The position numbers and the translations under genes were made by a program. Shown here piece by piece: positions 44,657-59,562 of a DNA stretch of 64,000 bases (its first letter is position 1; each line of letters starts with the position of its first letter). The stretch lies in contig JACKGI010000003.1 in assembly GCA_020632015.1 (NCBI GenBank), forward strand, positions 1,421 through 65,420, in the 5' to 3' direction. The notes under the pieces were generated by a model that made no database searches, was not told the DNA's origin, and saw only the letters and a program-made list of their open reading frames with translations. Source of the DNA: Candidatus Nomurabacteria bacterium. Its GTDB lineage: Bacteria > Patescibacteriota > Minisyncoccia > Phycocordibacterales > UBA918.

Positions 44657-46201
44657 ATGTCCAAACCAAAATATTTTCTATATGCTCGCAAGAGCACCGA
44701 GGATGATGACAAGCAGGTGATGAGTATCGAAGCTCAGTTGTTTGAGCTTCGTGAGTTTGCTCGCAAAGAAAATCTTGAAATCCTAGTGGAGTTTCAAGAG
44801 TCAAAAAGCGCAAAGACACCAGGGCGACCTGTATTCAATGACATGATGCGGGCTATCGAGGAGCAAGAAGAAATCGGCATATTGGCGTGGCATCCGGACA
44901 GACTTGCTCGCAACTCGATAGATGGTGGTCGCATCATTTACCTTGTCGATCAGGGGAAGTTAGTGTCTATGCGCTTTCCGACTTTTTGGTTTGAACCTAC
45001 CCCGCAGGGGCTCTTTATGTTGCAAGTGGCGTTTGGCCAGTCGAAATATTACTCGGATAATCTCCAAGAGAATATTCGTCGGGGGATGCGCCAAAAACTC
45101 CGCCGTGGAGAGTGGTTGTGTAAAGCGCCGCTCGGGTACACAAACAATCCCAAGACCAGAAATATTGAGCCAGTTGGTTTTCAAGCGCGGGTGATAAAGT
45201 TAGCATTTGAAAAATACGCGAAGGGCGGAACTGGTCTTGAGGCATTGGCGGAGTTTATGGCGCATCATGGTATGACGACTCAGGAAGGAACGCCACTTGG
45301 CAAAGCTACCGTGAAGCGAATGCTTTCGAATCGGGCATATATCGGACTTACGAAACATAAGGGCGAATGGTTTCCCGGTAGCTTTGCACCAATTATTTCC
45401 TCGAAATTATTTGAAGACGTGCAACGAGCACTCAAAGTGCGCGAGAAGCCGCGGAAGCGCAAGGTACGACATGATTTTCCTTTTGCTGGACTTTTTCAGT
45501 GTGCGGAGTGTGGCGGCATGTTTACTGCTCAGTGGGCAACAGGGAAGACAGGGCAGCGGTATAGATACTATCGTTGCACTAAGAAAAAGGGAGTCTGTAC
45601 GCAAAAGTACTTGCGTGAGGAGGAACTTCTCGCGCAGATAAAAGATCGTCTTCAAAAAATTTCGCTTTGCGATAATGTGCTTGAGGAGTTGGAGCGTCAG
45701 CTCACAGAGATTGAAAAAGCAGAACATCAATCATCGCAAAGCGACCTCCAAAATCTTTCTGAAAGTATCAAAGCGGGTGAAGCGCGCTTGAATAAGTTGG
45801 TCGAGTCGTATCTCGATGGTGATATTCCAAAGGAGCTGTATGTACAGAAGAAAGACGAGATACTCCGCGCAAACACCGCTTTGCATGAAGAAATGAAAGA
45901 TTTTAAACGTCGAGGAAATACTTGGGTCGAACCCCTGCGCGAATGGATTTCAGATACTAAACAAGCCAATTTTTTAACAAACACAGAGGATCTTCAAGAT
46001 ATTCGTGTGTTTGTTGAAAAAATTGGAACGAACCCTTCGGTTCGTGACAAATCCGCGCGCTTCGGCGTGCCCGTCCTCTCGGAATTGGTCTTTGCGTACA
46101 ATACAAAAACCGATTTCATGCACACACAAACCCCTATCCGCTTTGCGGATAGGGGTCGTGGAATGAGTAATGTTTCAATTTGTGGAGATGGGGGGAGTTG
46201 A
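44657..46201 (+). CDS. Large serine recombinase (integrase)
   Basis: N-terminal resolvase domain (KYFLYARKSTEDDDKQVMSIEAQ), recombinase domain, zinc ribbon CAECGG...YYRC, coiled coil. The last ~52 codons read through repeat Y', and the TGA stop lies inside the ssrA T-arm. Confidence 0.9.
   Translation: MSKPKYFLYARKSTEDDDKQVMSIEAQLFELREFARKENLEILVEFQESKSAKTPGRPVFNDMMRAIEEQEEIGILAWHPDRLARNSIDGGRIIYLVDQGKLVSMRFPTFWFEPTPQGLFMLQVAFGQSKYYSDNLQENIRRGMRQKLRRGEWLCKAPLGYTNNPKTRNIEPVGFQARVIKLAFEKYAKGGTGLEALAEFMAHHGMTTQEGTPLGKATVKRMLSNRAYIGLTKHKGEWFPGSFAPIISSKLFEDVQRALKVREKPRKRKVRHDFPFAGLFQCAECGGMFTAQWATGKTGQRYRYYRCTKKKGVCTQKYLREEELLAQIKDRLQKISLCDNVLEELERQLTEIEKAEHQSSQSDLQNLSESIKAGEARLNKLVESYLDGDIPKELYVQKKDEILRANTALHEEMKDFKRRGNTWVEPLREWISDTKQANFLTNTEDLQDIRVFVEKIGTNPSVRDKSARFGVPVLSELVFAYNTKTDFMHTQTPIRFADRGRGMSNVSICGDGGS
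46047..46185 (-). repeat. 139-bp inverted repeat, right copy (Y'), which is the region immediately downstream of ssrA including its terminator hairpin
   Basis: Reverse complement of 44491-44629. Shares CCA with the 3' end of ssrA. Confidence 0.95.
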
Positions 46202-46576
46202 ACCCCCGTCCGAATCAGGGTGCGAATATGAGTCTACAGTGCGTAGTACATTCTTTGGTTTAAAGTAGCTAACTAGAGAATGAACAAAACACTAACTACT
46301 CGAGTTGTTACAATCTTGAAAACCTAAGACAACGACAAAGGTTTCCACAGTCTCGTAGCTATTCTACAAGTGTCAGCGTATGAGACGTTTACTGAACTTG
46401 CATCGCATCGGCGAGCGTAAGATTACGCTACAGCGGGTGCGAATCCGAACGCGTTAGCGTAAGGACTTGGTACTGCTTTGTTTGCATGTACAAGACGGAA
46501 CCTTTTAACGAATTGATTACCAGTTTTCGACACTGCACACATCCGACACGACTAACCGTCGATGCCTAGCATCCCC
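46183..46576 (-). ncRNA. ssrA: tmRNA (SsrA)
   Basis: 5' GGGGAUGCUAGGCAUCGACGG. 3' GGACGGGGGUUCAACUCCCCCCAUCUCCA. The acceptor pairs GGGGAUG/CAUCUCC with G3-U. Predicted tag reading frame 46485-46423 gives ANKAVPSPYANAFGFAPAVA*. smpB lies nearby. Confidence 0.9.
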
Positions 46577-52475: not shown

Positions 52476-53981
52476 TCAAGGGGCAACTATAGTGTCGCCT
52501 TCATCTAGACCAGTTATGGAAACAAAACCATCATTTCCGCTTAGGATTACTTCAACTGTACTTGAGGCACTTATCCCATTTTTTTGAACGATAACCTCGT
52601 AGCCGGATTCAGTTTTGGTTAAAAATCTTTTCGGGATTCTAAGGCCATTAGCCTCTTCGCTAATTATTATTTCTATGTCAGCGTTTAGACCGCTACGAAT
52701 CCAGGCTGGTATCTCGTCTAATTGAATTATTGCTTCGTAGTACGCAACGCCGTCGATTTCTGTAGCCTTAAGTGAAATAAAACTGATTTTGCCTGTAAGT
52801 ATTTCTCCGTTCTTTGCGTCAAATAGCATTTCAACCTTTTGTCCGACCAGAAGTTTGCCGATGTCTATTTCTGGTATTCGTGCAGTTACTTCAAATTCGT
52901 CGCTTGCCAACAAGGTAGCTACTGGAGCAGTTGTTACAGTTTCGCCCGGAAGTATGTCTATCTCAGTGATCACACCAGCAAATGGCGCGGTCAGAGAACG
53001 GTCAGCAATTGTGGAATCAATTCGCGCTATTCTAGCCTTTGCTTGTGCAATTGATGCGTTTGCTCGAGCAACGGCTTCGCTTCTGGCTGGTGCGTTTTGG
53101 TTTGTGACATCAGCTTTGGCCAACGAAAGAGCTTTCTCGGCTAGTGAGATAGCGCTTGCAGATTGGCTAACAGCAAGTAAGTAGGCATTTCTGTTAGCGG
53201 TGTATTGAGAAGATTTCATGTTTGGAATGTCCACTCTCCAATTGCTGTTTGAATAATTTGATGACTGACTGAATTGGATTCTAAGCCCGCAATTACCCAG
53301 CGCACTTGGCTGGTCTGTAGAAATGGTGTAAGTGCCGTTTTCTAGTCCAGTCAATCTAAATGAATAACCAGACTCTGCTTTTGAACTGAATACTTCAATG
53401 TTGTATACACCTTCTGTGCCACAGGTATATGTTCCAGAGATAAGTGGTGGTACAGCATCATCGTTTGGATCTACAGAGTAGGCGGTTAAGTCTGTCGACA
53501 GAAGTGAGCGGTAGGCATTTTCTACTTTTTGCGCCTCAGTGTCCTTGGTAGTTTGTAGAGCCTCTTCCTTACTTAGGACTGTCTTGGCAGAGACGTCGCG
53601 AGCAGATAGAGTAGGTCCTTCTAGTAGTTCATCTCTATCAGCGATTGCTCTAGCTAATGAAGCTAGAGCGTCTTGTCTGTCAGCGTAAAGAGCTCTTGAA
53701 TCGAGAGTAATAAGTGGGTCTCCAGCATTTACTTCGTCACCTATTTTTACATGAACTGTTTCTACGATACCACTCACGGGAAAGGCGAGTTCGGCAGTTT
53801 GTTCTGCCTTAGCAATTCCTGAAACTGAGACAAGTTCTCTAACCGGACCTGATTCAACCTGTGTGGTGACCAAGACCTCTTTGTTTCTACTGCCAACGCC
53901 GTGAGCCATCAAAATAACGATGACGATTACTACTACAGCAATACCAATAAATGAAGAACGACTATGAAAAAGCTTAACCAT
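52476..53981 (-). CDS. Periplasmic adaptor / HlyD-family membrane fusion protein
   Basis: N-terminal anchor, lipoyl-like GDEVNAGDPLITLD, coiled coil, beta-barrel region. Shares an operon with the ABC genes. Confidence 0.8.
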   Translation of the reverse strand: MVKLFHSRSSFIGIAVVVIVIVILMAHGVGSRNKEVLVTTQVESGPVRELVSVSGIAKAEQTAELAFPVSGIVETVHVKIGDEVNAGDPLITLDSRALYADRQDALASLARAIADRDELLEGPTLSARDVSAKTVLSKEEALQTTKDTEAQKVENAYRSLLSTDLTAYSVDPNDDAVPPLISGTYTCGTEGVYNIEVFSSKAESGYSFRLTGLENGTYTISTDQPSALGNCGLRIQFSQSSNYSNSNWRVDIPNMKSSQYTANRNAYLLAVSQSASAISLAEKALSLAKADVTNQNAPARSEAVARANASIAQAKARIARIDSTIADRSLTAPFAGVITEIDILPGETVTTAPVATLLASDEFEVTARIPEIDIGKLLVGQKVEMLFDAKNGEILTGKISFISLKATEIDGVAYYEAIIQLDEIPAWIRSGLNADIEIIISEEANGLRIPKRFLTKTESGYEVIVQKNGISASSTVEVILSGNDGFVSITGLDEGDTIVAP

Positions 53982-54138
53982 GATGGATTAATTATAGCAG
54001 AATGCTAGACGTTTCTTTGCGAAGTTTTAGGTTCTAGGTGCCGGCGCTCTATTTAGTAGTGAGGTGATATGAAAGTTACTCTCTGAGTCTCCGTACACAG
54101 TTCAAGAAATATTTGCTTACAAACTGAGTTTAATTTTG

Positions 54139-54168
54139 TCCATCCACTAGGACTCGAACCTAGGACTA
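54139..54168 (-). pseudogene. 3' fragment of a tRNA (variable loop, T-arm, acceptor 3' strand UGGAUGG, discriminator A)
   Basis: uaguc-CUAGG-UUCGAGU-CCUAG-UGGAUGG-A. The acceptor strand is perfectly complementary to the 5' fragment at 54353-54390. Confidence 0.6.
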
Positions 54169-54197
54169 TTAGCTATATGGAAATGAAGTTTCCTGTG

Positions 54198-54270
54198 TCC
54201 GCCCGCCAGGACTCGAACCTGGGACCACGAAGGTATAAGCTTCGCGCTCTACCAACTGAGCTACAGGCGG
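54198..54270 (-). tRNA. tRNA-Ile(UAU)
   Basis: Manual cloverleaf: acceptor CCGCCUG/CGGGCGG, D arm GCUC-AGUUGGUA-GAGC, anticodon arm CGAAG-CUUAUAC-CUUCG, variable UGGUC, T arm CCAGG-UUCGAGU-CCUGG. CCA is not encoded. Confidence 0.8.
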
Positions 54271-54352
54271 ACACATCAAACTTCAACCCACACAATGCTT
54301 CGCTTCGGAAAACAAATACTCACTTCGCTCGTGCTTGTTTCCTCAGCTAACA

Positions 54353-54390
54353 TTGTAAGCTTCGCGCTCTACCAACTGAGCTATGGATGG
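54353..54390 (-). pseudogene. 5' fragment of a tRNA (acceptor CCAUCCA, D arm, anticodon-stem 5' strand, loop CUUACAA with anticodon UAC, Val-like)
   Basis: Positions 8-35 are identical (28 nt) to the tRNA-Ile gene. No matching CUUCG 3' stem strand follows. Confidence 0.6.
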
Positions 54391-54836
54391 TTGGTGCTCA
54401 ACACTATAACGCAGAGTCACAAATGGAACAATGTTGACTCCTTTACAAATAGTCATGTTTTGGTAATACTATATAAAGGGTTACTCCTAATGTGCCCTGT
54501 TTCACACCACTCGGGAGCAATTCCCGGCGGGGGCAGTCTACATGACAGGCTGCCCCCTTTTATTTTGTAGATACTTGATATCCAAGATTTTTCATATACA
54601 ATCGAAATAGGCGCACTATTCGGTGTGCTGGATTAGAAGGAGTATACGTTTATGATATATGCCATCAAACCCTTCCCATCCACCAAGTTTCTTAAAGGAG
54701 GTGATTGCCTCTAGAAGGCTATCTTAAGGTGCTGTTGAAAGTCTCATACTGTGGGACTCATGAAATATCACCAAACGAGGCTCACCCCCTCAAACATTAT
54801 TTGACCGCAGAGTTTCTATCGCCTGCGGTTTTTTAT

Positions 54837-59384: not shown

Positions 59385-59472
59385 GGAGAGTTGGCTGAGT
59401 GGTCGAAAGCGCTTCACTGCTAACGAAGTAAGCCTGATAAAGGCTTCAAGGGTTCGAATCCCTTACTCTCCG
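59385..59472 (+). tRNA. tRNA-Ser(GCU)
   Basis: Class II tRNA: acceptor GGAGAGU/ACUCUCC, anticodon loop CUGCUAA, long variable arm AAGCCUGAUAAAGGCUUC, T arm AAGGG-UUCGAAU-CCCUU, discriminator G. Confidence 0.88.
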
Positions 59473-59562
59473 CATCATCGAGCTAGCACGAGGAACTATC
59501 GTTTTAGCTCAAAGAAGCACCCGCTTGGGTGCTTCTTTGTTATAGCGTATTATTGACATTCT

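Follow-up and report, generated by a model that had tools for sequence, protein, structure and literature searches.

INTRODUCTION

Genes for tRNA are reportedly used as insertion sites by integrative elements and genomic islands, which restore the part that they displace, and the anticodon and T stem-loops of tRNA are said to be classic integrase targets. In Archaea, the intron of tRNA-Trp encodes a box C/D RNA. Disruption of an archaeal tRNA gene by a mobile element has been described (PMC3293823), as have archaeal tRNA introns, split tRNAs, and transposing introns with bulge-helix-bulge motifs (PMC4090602, PMC10714607). Group I introns sit in the anticodon loops of bacterial tRNA genes, including introns at position 35/36 of tRNA-Asn and tRNA-Asp in Patescibacteria (PMC13011429). 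Here, we analyze a 64,000-nucleotide (nt) stretch of DNA from a Candidatus Nomurabacteria bacterium (contig JACKGI010000003.1; the whole stretch is hereafter called the window), in which a complete tRNA-Ile(UAU) gene lies, as part of a structured insert, between the two halves of another gene that we interpret as an older tRNA-Ile(UAU). This nested arrangement has apparently not been described before, and full-text searches of the literature gave no description of nested tRNA genes in bacteria.

The insert shares with group I introns the phylum, a position in the anticodon loop beside nucleotide 35, a patchy distribution among relatives, and, in most copies, the absence of a homing-endonuclease gene. 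Unlike them, it has no detectable core, measures about 107 nt without its tRNA, ends in U rather than G, and brings a complete tRNA, while the host halves usually decay and splicing does not appear to be maintained. As with integrative elements and islands, the insertion leaves tRNA fragments, a replacement sequence would keep the function, and one locus is hit repeatedly; in contrast to them, the insert is about 180 nt long, has no integrase or recombinase gene nearby, carries a whole tRNA instead of a 3' segment, is bordered by nested 5' and 3' relics, and has a one-strand fold. Archaeal introns and split tRNAs are likewise structured and mobile between tRNA genes, with complementary flanks that hold the halves and a second RNA housed inside; however, the host of the insert is bacterial (a tmRNA gene is present), the structure is a three-way junction with abutting hairpins, the tRNA carried inside duplicates the gene that is interrupted, and there is no evidence for a splicing endonuclease here. 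Finally, IS200/IS605 elements and their short derivatives also lack terminal inverted repeats and a clear target duplication, have a hairpin at each end and structure on one strand, and resemble the insert in GNA-triloop mini-hairpins that are stable as single-stranded DNA, whereas the hairpins of the insert are flush with its ends rather than subterminal, its target is one site rather than many sites sharing a tetranucleotide, and no transposase was seen nearby. In that it would spare an essential target, the insert comes closest to homing introns and to integrative elements directed at tRNA genes. By the defining features that were tested, it does not qualify as a group I intron, a bulge-helix-bulge intron, an integrase island, or an IS200/IS605 derivative.

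RESULTS

A complete tRNA gene lies between two tRNA halves

The nested unit occupies 252 nt of the minus strand (Table 1), and its minimum free energy (MFE) of -102.4 kcal/mol (z = -5.55) was equaled in none of 200 shuffles. ARAGORN reported the inner gene as tRNA-Ile(TAT) at 54197-54270, and the Rfam tRNA model matched it with 69.1 bits at 54198-54270. This gene is of the CCGCCTG type, does not encode CCA, and is identical to the tRNA-Ile of relatives L006, L008, L010, and L033 (L numbers denote related loci). We take it to be the working gene of the window. A 3' CCA is encoded in few tRNA-Ile(UAU) genes (L002, L032, L047, and L074), most of the clade and both window genes being without it.

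The outer pieces were matched by nhmmer with a profile built from 62 related tRNA-Ile genes: the 5' piece corresponds to model positions 2-37 (29.5 bits, E = 3.4e-7) and the 3' piece to positions 43-74 (19.5 bits, E = 4.5e-4). An initial annotation of this stretch had described a complete tRNA nested in a split tRNA, and ARAGORN, Rfam, the profile matches to both outer pieces, and the recurrence of the arrangement all bear this out. The outer 5' part as drawn there lies at 54390..54353 (CCATCCA...CTTACAA), the 82-nt spacer lies at 54352..54271, and the 3' part ends in TGGATGG-A at 54139; we also confirmed the 7/7 complementarity of the outer 5' acceptor strand to 54140-54146 and the 28/28 identity of the inner and outer genes at positions 8-35. 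ARAGORN run with intron and pseudogene options, along the lines proposed there, recovered the inner gene but did not report the outer one.

The nested arrangement recurs at one break site in relatives

An unbiased sample of 80 loci was fetched through RecG (68-90% identity), and a tRNA-Ile(UAU) gene lies downstream of RecG in 62 of them. These RecG relatives, recorded as Kaiserbacteria, Nomurabacteria, Paceibacteria, and Parcubacteria, place the window in Patescibacteria. Among these RecG-linked genes including that of the window (n = 63), 14 are nested, 9 have a 3' relic only, 3 have a 5' relic only, and 37 are relic-free. Scanning metagenomes for a T loop that has ATACCT..G.GGTC 28-58 nt after it, a pattern biased to intact 3' halves, yielded 35 further nested loci. 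The total of 49 nested contigs comes from many independent assemblies and projects, and some of them are 0.4-1 Mb long. One of the closest relatives, L001 (RecG 88%), is N-masked from 6753, inside the T arm of tRNA-Ile, where its arrangement is unreadable.

The break site is constant across copies: 5' pieces stop at model positions ~35-37, and nearly all 3' pieces start at 32-34, with the 3' piece of the window, being decayed, aligning only from position 43. A complete inner tRNA is present in every insert copy examined, and no insert lacking it was found among these loci. At the same anticodon-loop site, L054 has an 18-nt hairpin, but inside a decayed relic only. What we saw in the relatives was this nesting, a solitary gene, or decayed relics; none has the two ordinary tandem tRNAs that the initial annotation had named as the sign of a collapsed or chimeric assembly. 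Altogether, the copies appear to form an insertion family that is specific for the anticodon loop of a single tRNA-Ile(UAU) gene in Paceibacteria-like Patescibacteria.

The outer gene reads as a decayed tRNA-Ile(UAU)

The outer 5' part was initially thought to end in an anticodon loop with anticodon UAC, as in a Val-like tRNA. The comparison with relatives contradicts this assignment. The C read as anticodon position 36 belongs to helix A1 of the insert and covaries with the 3' strand of that helix (ACA/UGU, AUA/UAU, ACU/AGU). In relatives with intact outer genes, the 3' piece begins with ATACC, and the loop of tRNA-Ile(UAU), CUUAUAC, reappears once the halves are joined at 34/35; this suggests that the outer gene of the window is a relic of tRNA-Ile(UAU), interrupted between U34 and A35, and not of tRNA-Val(UAC). 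A functional tRNA-Val(UAC) was rejected as a candidate, given that ACA forms the first three nt of helix A1, that the outer 3' half starts with AUA(C), and that only 2 of the 5 stem pairs exist. Likewise, CUUCA (54184-54188), previously singled out as the only candidate for the missing anticodon-stem strand, turned out to be part of the 3' strand of helix B.

In the outer gene of the window, the acceptor stem, D arm, and T arm are kept, and the 3' strand of the anticodon stem is lost, which leaves 2 of 5 pairs. The anticodon-stem strand and variable region of the 3' half are mutated at the place where relatives show ATACCTTCGTGGTCC, and ARAGORN recognized no tRNA in the joined halves. In the unbiased RecG-linked set, 4 of 14 joined outer genes are still recognizable as tRNA-Ile(UAU); the figure is 24 of 39 for the nonredundant copies, in which the metagenome pattern favors intact 3' halves.

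Close relatives of the window place this decay in order. L006 (RecG 86%) shares both relics with the window, the CCATCCA 5' relic and the odd 3' one, the latter further decayed, and has a degenerated domain A (see below), which implies that the nest is old and that both the relic and domain A are dispensable. In L008, L010, and L033 (RecG 86-90%), the only tRNA is the one identical to the inner gene of the window, and no tRNA relics were detected. It thus appears that, in the window lineage, a resident gene of the CCATCCA type was replaced by an invading copy of the CCGCCTG type and that the outer gene is dead. The reading of a tRNA disrupted by insertion, which was among the explanations offered initially, is the best supported one. 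Gene conversion, offered beside it, is plausible as the source of the 28/28 identity, through partial conversion from the inner copy.

The insert consists of two hairpins that abut the break

In the window, an insert of 180 nt separates U34 from A35 in the resident gene. It comprises, in order, domain A, the 5' strand of helix B, the complete tRNA-Ile(UAU), and the 3' strand of helix B. Two closed hairpins are formed that abut the break, such that exon 1 (...CUU) is followed by a first hairpin (A-Y-...-R-U), a second hairpin (A-U-...-A-U), and exon 2 (AUAC...), and both hairpins make up a three-way junction with the anticodon stem. The initial annotation had instead seen the insert as bracketed by an 8-bp complementarity (UGUUAGCU against AGCUAAUA), which is at chance level, since complementarity of at least 8 bp arises in 56% of shuffles.

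Domain A of the window begins with helix A1 (ACAATGT/GCATTGT); a 2x3 purine loop joins it to a helix of 3 bp (GCT/AGC), which is followed by a tandem G·A loop and by helix A2 with its apical loop. Its first nucleotide mimics A35; across copies, the short helix has 2-3 bp and the tip is variable. An alignment of 13 copies (alignment A1) has 93.9% of its cells paired and changes on both sides in 13 of 19 pairs, which was matched by none of 500 shuffles, while alignments slid as a control pair at only 34-50%. The sole invariant internal nucleotides of domain A are the unpaired purines A9, G13, G51, A52, G56, and A57. For helix B, an alignment of 21 copies built with artificial linkers and fixed windows (alignment A2) has 89.4% of cells paired and compensatory changes in 14 of 17 pairs, again with no match in 500 shuffles. 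Helix B continues into the inner acceptor stem, where G(-2):C74 is invariant and U(-1) pairs with A73; a U at -1 suits RNase P.

The insert exists in two variants. In variant 1, to which the window belongs, the tRNA sits at the tip of helix B. In variant 2, it is domain A that holds the tRNA at its tip, helix B being reduced to a mini hairpin, e.g., AUC-GAA-GAU. With RNA parameters, folding favors the sense over the antisense strand in all 39 copies, the mean energies being -28.7 kcal/mol for sense, -19.7 for antisense, and -14.6 for shuffled inserts; with DNA parameters, the sense strand is still the better one in 37 of 39. This advantage points to a structure selected on the tRNA-sense strand, and the selected fold could act in the transcript or in sense single-stranded DNA. 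The invariant purines and the kept mini hairpin favor specific recognition of the insert.

In variant 2, mini hairpin B frequently takes the form of a C(GNA)G triloop (ATCGAAGAT; L029, L012, L146, L097, and others), and GCGAAGC occurs in the domain A loops of L077, L127, L129, and L029. GNA triloops and GCGAAGC are exceptionally stable as single-stranded DNA. Such stable hairpins are a hint that the fold of the insert might act at the DNA level.

Insert types do not track the host phylogeny

The acceptor stems of inner and outer genes often differ, each being self-complementary (window, L077, L133, L097, and L143). Layered loci with a different insert type at each level were found (L048, L077, and L004), and 13 loci have at least two 3' relics. 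Pairwise comparisons separate the inserts from their hosts. L007 and L019 have RecG proteins that are 94% identical and inserts that are 59% identical (the shuffle baseline is 50 ± 2.5%), and the window and L004 have 88% and 56%, respectively; L077 and L127, by comparison, have 73% RecG identity and 87% insert identity, and the window and L127 have 82% and 83%. Altogether, these comparisons suggest that insert types do not track the host phylogeny and that invasion has been independent and repeated. The single-relic loci would fit deletion between repeated halves.

The insert is specific to its locus and matches no known family

A covariance model of domain A (R1) had a single match in the window, at 54292-54356 (78.9 bits, E = 1.8e-18, covariance-model E-values for domain A being rough). 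In 1.1 Mb of related DNA, all 18 strong matches (at least 55.7 bits) lie immediately upstream of tRNA-Ile(UAU) genes, and the only other matches, both weak and on the opposite strand (L028, 28 bits; L151, 22.5 bits), likewise coincide with or adjoin tRNA-Ile pieces.

Searches of Rfam at gathering and permissive thresholds returned tRNA and chance matches only, with no family for the insert. Neither the window nor 12 related loci gave a match to the group I core (Intron_gpI) at the gathering threshold, and 53800-54800 gave none even with E values up to 10 allowed. The nucleotide before the insert is a U (U34), as required of a group I intron, but essentially all copies end in ...AU instead of G. 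A bulge-helix-bulge motif was rejected, as the insert ends at the bases of two different closed hairpins and the 3-nt bulge, 4-bp helix, and 3-nt bulge cannot be drawn. No splicing endonuclease or ligase was found among the 8 neighboring window genes scanned. By eye, a hammerhead core was rejected (CUGA is present, but the equivalents of G8-A9 are Watson-Crick paired), as were a kink-turn, box C/D, loop E, and hairpin ribozyme. A split or permuted tRNA gene was dismissed as well, the halves being collinear on one putative transcript with an intact copy between them.

Signs of a mobile element with its own enzyme were equally sought. No integrase, transposase, or homing endonuclease recurs among 585 open reading frames (ORFs) clustered within 4 kb of 64 relic-bearing loci, the clusters consisting of syntenic host genes only, and viral contigs searched with three patterns, together with BLAST against phage genomes, gave unrelated or tandem tRNAs only. 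Neither terminal inverted repeats nor a target duplication is consistent across copies, the TA/ATA repeat lying partly within helix A1. The junction repeat amounts to 3-4 nt, A(Y)A/ATA, and its left copy covaries with the insert helix (ACA/TGT, ATA/TAT, ACT/AGT); beyond that similarity, direct repeats of the tRNA 3' part were not found flanking the insert.

The nested unit has a putative promoter and syntenic neighbors

The neighbors of the unit in the window are syntenic host genes, encoding by Pfam annotation RecG, an HlyD-like adaptor, MacB/FtsX, an ABC ATPase, and FtsH. Exact-match queries with the proteins of the two flanking genes gave no record. The promoter candidate of the window (Table 1) was read from the sequence and is absent from the list of the consensus scan because of its weak -35 hexamer. 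In 71 of 103 related loci, the 120 nt before the outermost tRNA piece include an exact TATAGT, with CACCAAC usually next. Since no promoter was seen inside the insert, the entire nested unit is probably transcribed as one RNA from the resident promoter. Between the end of recG and the tRNA promoter, at 54529-54557, an 11-bp G+C-rich hairpin is followed by a T run on the plus strand, and it looks like a terminator that separates recG from the tRNA unit. Elsewhere in the window, a tmRNA gene lies at 46180-46576 on the minus strand, with the predicted tag ANKAVPSPYANAFGFAPAVA.

Table 1. Positions in the window of the parts of the nested unit and its surroundings
Feature	Positions	Strand	Description	Basis
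recG on one side; HlyD-like adaptor, MacB/FtsX permease, ABC ATPase operon on the other			Flank the tRNA unit on either side	Pfam annotation, ORFs
Putative promoter of the unit	54403..54431	-	TTGTTC (54431-54426), 17-nt spacer, TATAGT (54408-54403), then CACCAA abutting the outer 5' half	
Outer 5' half, apparent relic	54357..54390	-	Positions 1-34 of the older tRNA-Ile(UAU); CCATCCATAGCTCAGTTGGTAGAGCGCGAAGCTT; last nt U34	
Domain A	54292..54356	-	65-nt rod	Covariance model R1, alignment A1
Helix B, 5' strand	54271..54291	-	GTGGGTTGAAGTTTGATGTGT; pairs with 54177-54197 and runs into the inner acceptor stem	MFE folds
Inner intact tRNA-Ile(UAU)	54198..54270	-		ARAGORN, Rfam tRNA
Helix B, 3' strand	54177..54197	-	CACAGGAAACTTCATTTCCAT; 3' end of the insert	MFE folds, alignment A2
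Outer 3' half, apparent relic	54139..54176	-	A35 to discriminator; ATAGCTAATAGTCCTAGGTTCGAGTCCTAGTGGATGGA	nhmmer

Further inserts and oddities occur in related loci

The T loop of relic 3' halves contains a conserved structured insert of 57-59 nt, GGTTC(CACCACAAGGGTA...CTAGGTC)GAGTCC, at L007:8944-9006, L019:8875-8937, L040:8096-8156, and 11 other loci. It is confined to relic halves and never found in a working gene, and its removal in L040 gives a perfect T arm. As a group I intron it was rejected (no Intron_gpI match). G+C-rich hairpin inserts lie exactly in the D loop of 5' relics (L109/L122 and L152), e.g., GCTCAGC(TTGCCCCGCCCGGCGGGGTGAAG)TAGAGC. Together with the anticodon-loop inserts, these indicate that relics gather structured inserts in all three tRNA loops.

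A recurrent GTGAGAAA-hairpin-TTTCGCAAGAC... sequence, with no Rfam match, directly adjoins T arms that are truncated in relic 3' halves, and it does so in both orientations: it lies downstream of the tRNA in L063, L079, L123, and L077 and runs the other way in L004:6790-6895 and L054:8395-8440. In L017, L020, L023, L026, L028, L032, L033, L041, and L048, tRNA-Ile is preceded by a leader hairpin, CCGCCTGTA...TACAGGCGG, which is made of an apparent relic 5' acceptor strand and a local complement and is followed by a second small hairpin. This leader hairpin may neutralize a relic strand that competes with folding of the working tRNA. Upstream of recG, ARAGORN reported a tRNA-Ser with anticodon ACT beside tRNA-Ser(GCT) in L005, L023, L027, L052, L054, L063, L065, and L068. 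A serine tRNA with A34 is unusual for bacteria; the window has tRNA-Ser(GCT) only, at 59385-59473.

DISCUSSION

A structured insertion that probably brings its own replacement

We consider it probable, although by no means certain, that the insert is a site-specific, recurrently invading structured insertion that replaces the tRNA-Ile(UAU) gene it breaks and that the window holds an old copy with a dead outer gene. The insert carries no protein gene, and we propose that it works as follows. The unit would be transcribed from the resident promoter, and RNase P and 3'-end processing would free the inner tRNA from the long precursor. The inner tRNA would then take over AUA decoding, such that breaking the only gene copy would be harmless. 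The resident halves would become relics, subject to decay, to partial overwriting by gene conversion, or to deletion via the repeated halves. New copies would re-enter intact tRNA-Ile genes, inner ones included, and such re-invasion would lead to layered genes and to insert types that are discordant with the host phylogeny. Entry may occur by homologous recombination after DNA uptake, with the 34- and 38-nt tRNA halves as arms, in which case pairing with the inner gene would add a layer; alternatively, an unlinked enzyme may recognize the two-hairpin junction.

Several points weigh against this interpretation. No mobility mechanism or enzyme was found among the neighboring genes, and a DNA-level parasite would have no obvious need for invariant unpaired purines or for a structure specific to the sense strand. 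The mini hairpin of variant 2 (ATC-GAA-GAT) is kept though empty, which points to recognition of two hairpins but could equally be an RNA-splicing signal. Many outer genes are fully intact, mostly in the metagenome set (24/39), whose pattern required an intact 3' half. All copies are at one orthologous locus, and vertical descent, losses, and allele exchange would explain part of the pattern without active transposition. Finally, it is only predicted from the DNA that the unit is transcribed, that RNase P and RNase Z process it, and that the inner tRNA is functional.

Alternative explanations

The alternative that we take most seriously, while regarding it as unlikely, is a new type of RNA intron that is cut at the bases of the hairpins (U34/A and U/A35), with the exons ligated by a host activity or by the RNA itself, so that one transcript gives two tRNA-Ile(UAU) and the outer gene decays only where it is redundant. 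Closing the two hairpins does leave CUU and AUAC side by side as a normal 7-nt anticodon loop, and the sense-strand-specific structure, the invariant unpaired purines, and the retention of mini hairpin B in variant 2 all speak for such an intron. Moreover, joining the halves in silico gives a recognizable tRNA-Ile(UAU) in 24 of 39 copies, many of them intact yet unlike the inner gene, the D and T loops of outer halves are the exact sites of other structured inserts, and Patescibacteria are rich in tRNA introns (PMC13011429). However, every copy contains an inner tRNA, such that no interrupted gene depends on splicing, and the outer gene is broken in 10 of 14 cases in the unbiased sample, the window included. 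The frequency of this decay argues against maintained splicing. Such an intron would also lack a group I core, a terminal G, and a bulge-helix-bulge motif, and domain A itself decays in L006.

We think it quite improbable that the nests are scars of site-specific recombination, i.e., circles or deleted remnants of integrase elements that use the anticodon loop as an attachment site, comparable to the cis-mobilizable remnants of integrative elements. The short A(Y)A/ATA repeat at both junctions, the excess of 3' relics (9 loci with 3' relics only against 3 with 5' relics only, and the 13 loci with two or more 3' relics), and the other insertions in the T arm of relic halves are the observations that such scars would explain. 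Such scars do not sit well with the rest of the data: no recombinase recurs beside the 64 relic-bearing loci, viral contigs and phage genomes gave no match, and covarying helices on one strand and conserved G·A loops are foreign to attachment sites. In addition, integrases duplicate the 3' part of a tRNA, which produces neither 5' halves nor a nested whole gene.

A further explanation, and a very improbable one, treats domain A as a functional leader, either a small RNA or a processing or stability element that is cotranscribed with tRNA-Ile, and the halves as incidental debris. The purines and compensatory pairs of domain A are kept across hosts with RecG proteins 58-94% identical, and, between L019 and L127, domain A is better conserved than the adjacent relic. 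Against a leader function in its own right stand the absence of domain A from 37 of 63 relatives (59%), its degradation in L006, its invariable start exactly at the anticodon-loop break, and its differing position relative to the tRNA in variants 1 and 2. As an addition to the replacing insertion that we prefer, a functional leader RNA is possible. Finally, an assembly artifact, which was suspected in the initial annotation and would arise by chimeric joining across near-identical tRNA genes whose identical positions 8-35 could mislead an assembler, has a negligible chance of being correct, given that the arrangement recurs in 49 contigs from independent assemblies with unique, covarying inserts, contigs of 0.4-1 Mb included, and that L006 has an orthologous relic.

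Implications

Returning to the replacing insertion, we note that it would be a tactic not seen before for tRNA genes: an essential single-copy gene is broken harmlessly because the replacement is carried along, and the outcome is gene turnover. There is also a practical consequence for annotation, as tRNA finders report only the inner gene and the relic halves invite false calls of a Val(UAC) pseudogene or a split tRNA.

More tentatively, it is possible that the insert represents a new class, either a protein-free site-specific element or a bacterial tRNA intron, in which a module of two hairpins containing tandem G·A loops (RNA or single-stranded DNA) guides the insert into the anticodon loop of tRNA-Ile(UAU), or out of it, and harm is avoided through the gene copy that the insert carries. 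In that case, the module might itself be a novel catalytic RNA, or it might be recognized by a splicing or integration machinery in Patescibacteria, and domain A is a candidate for a new ribozyme or protein-recognition element. The nested loci would offer a living bacterial case of tRNA gene interruption, with insertion, nesting, decay, and recombination of halves, that bears on the origin of tRNA introns and split tRNAs.

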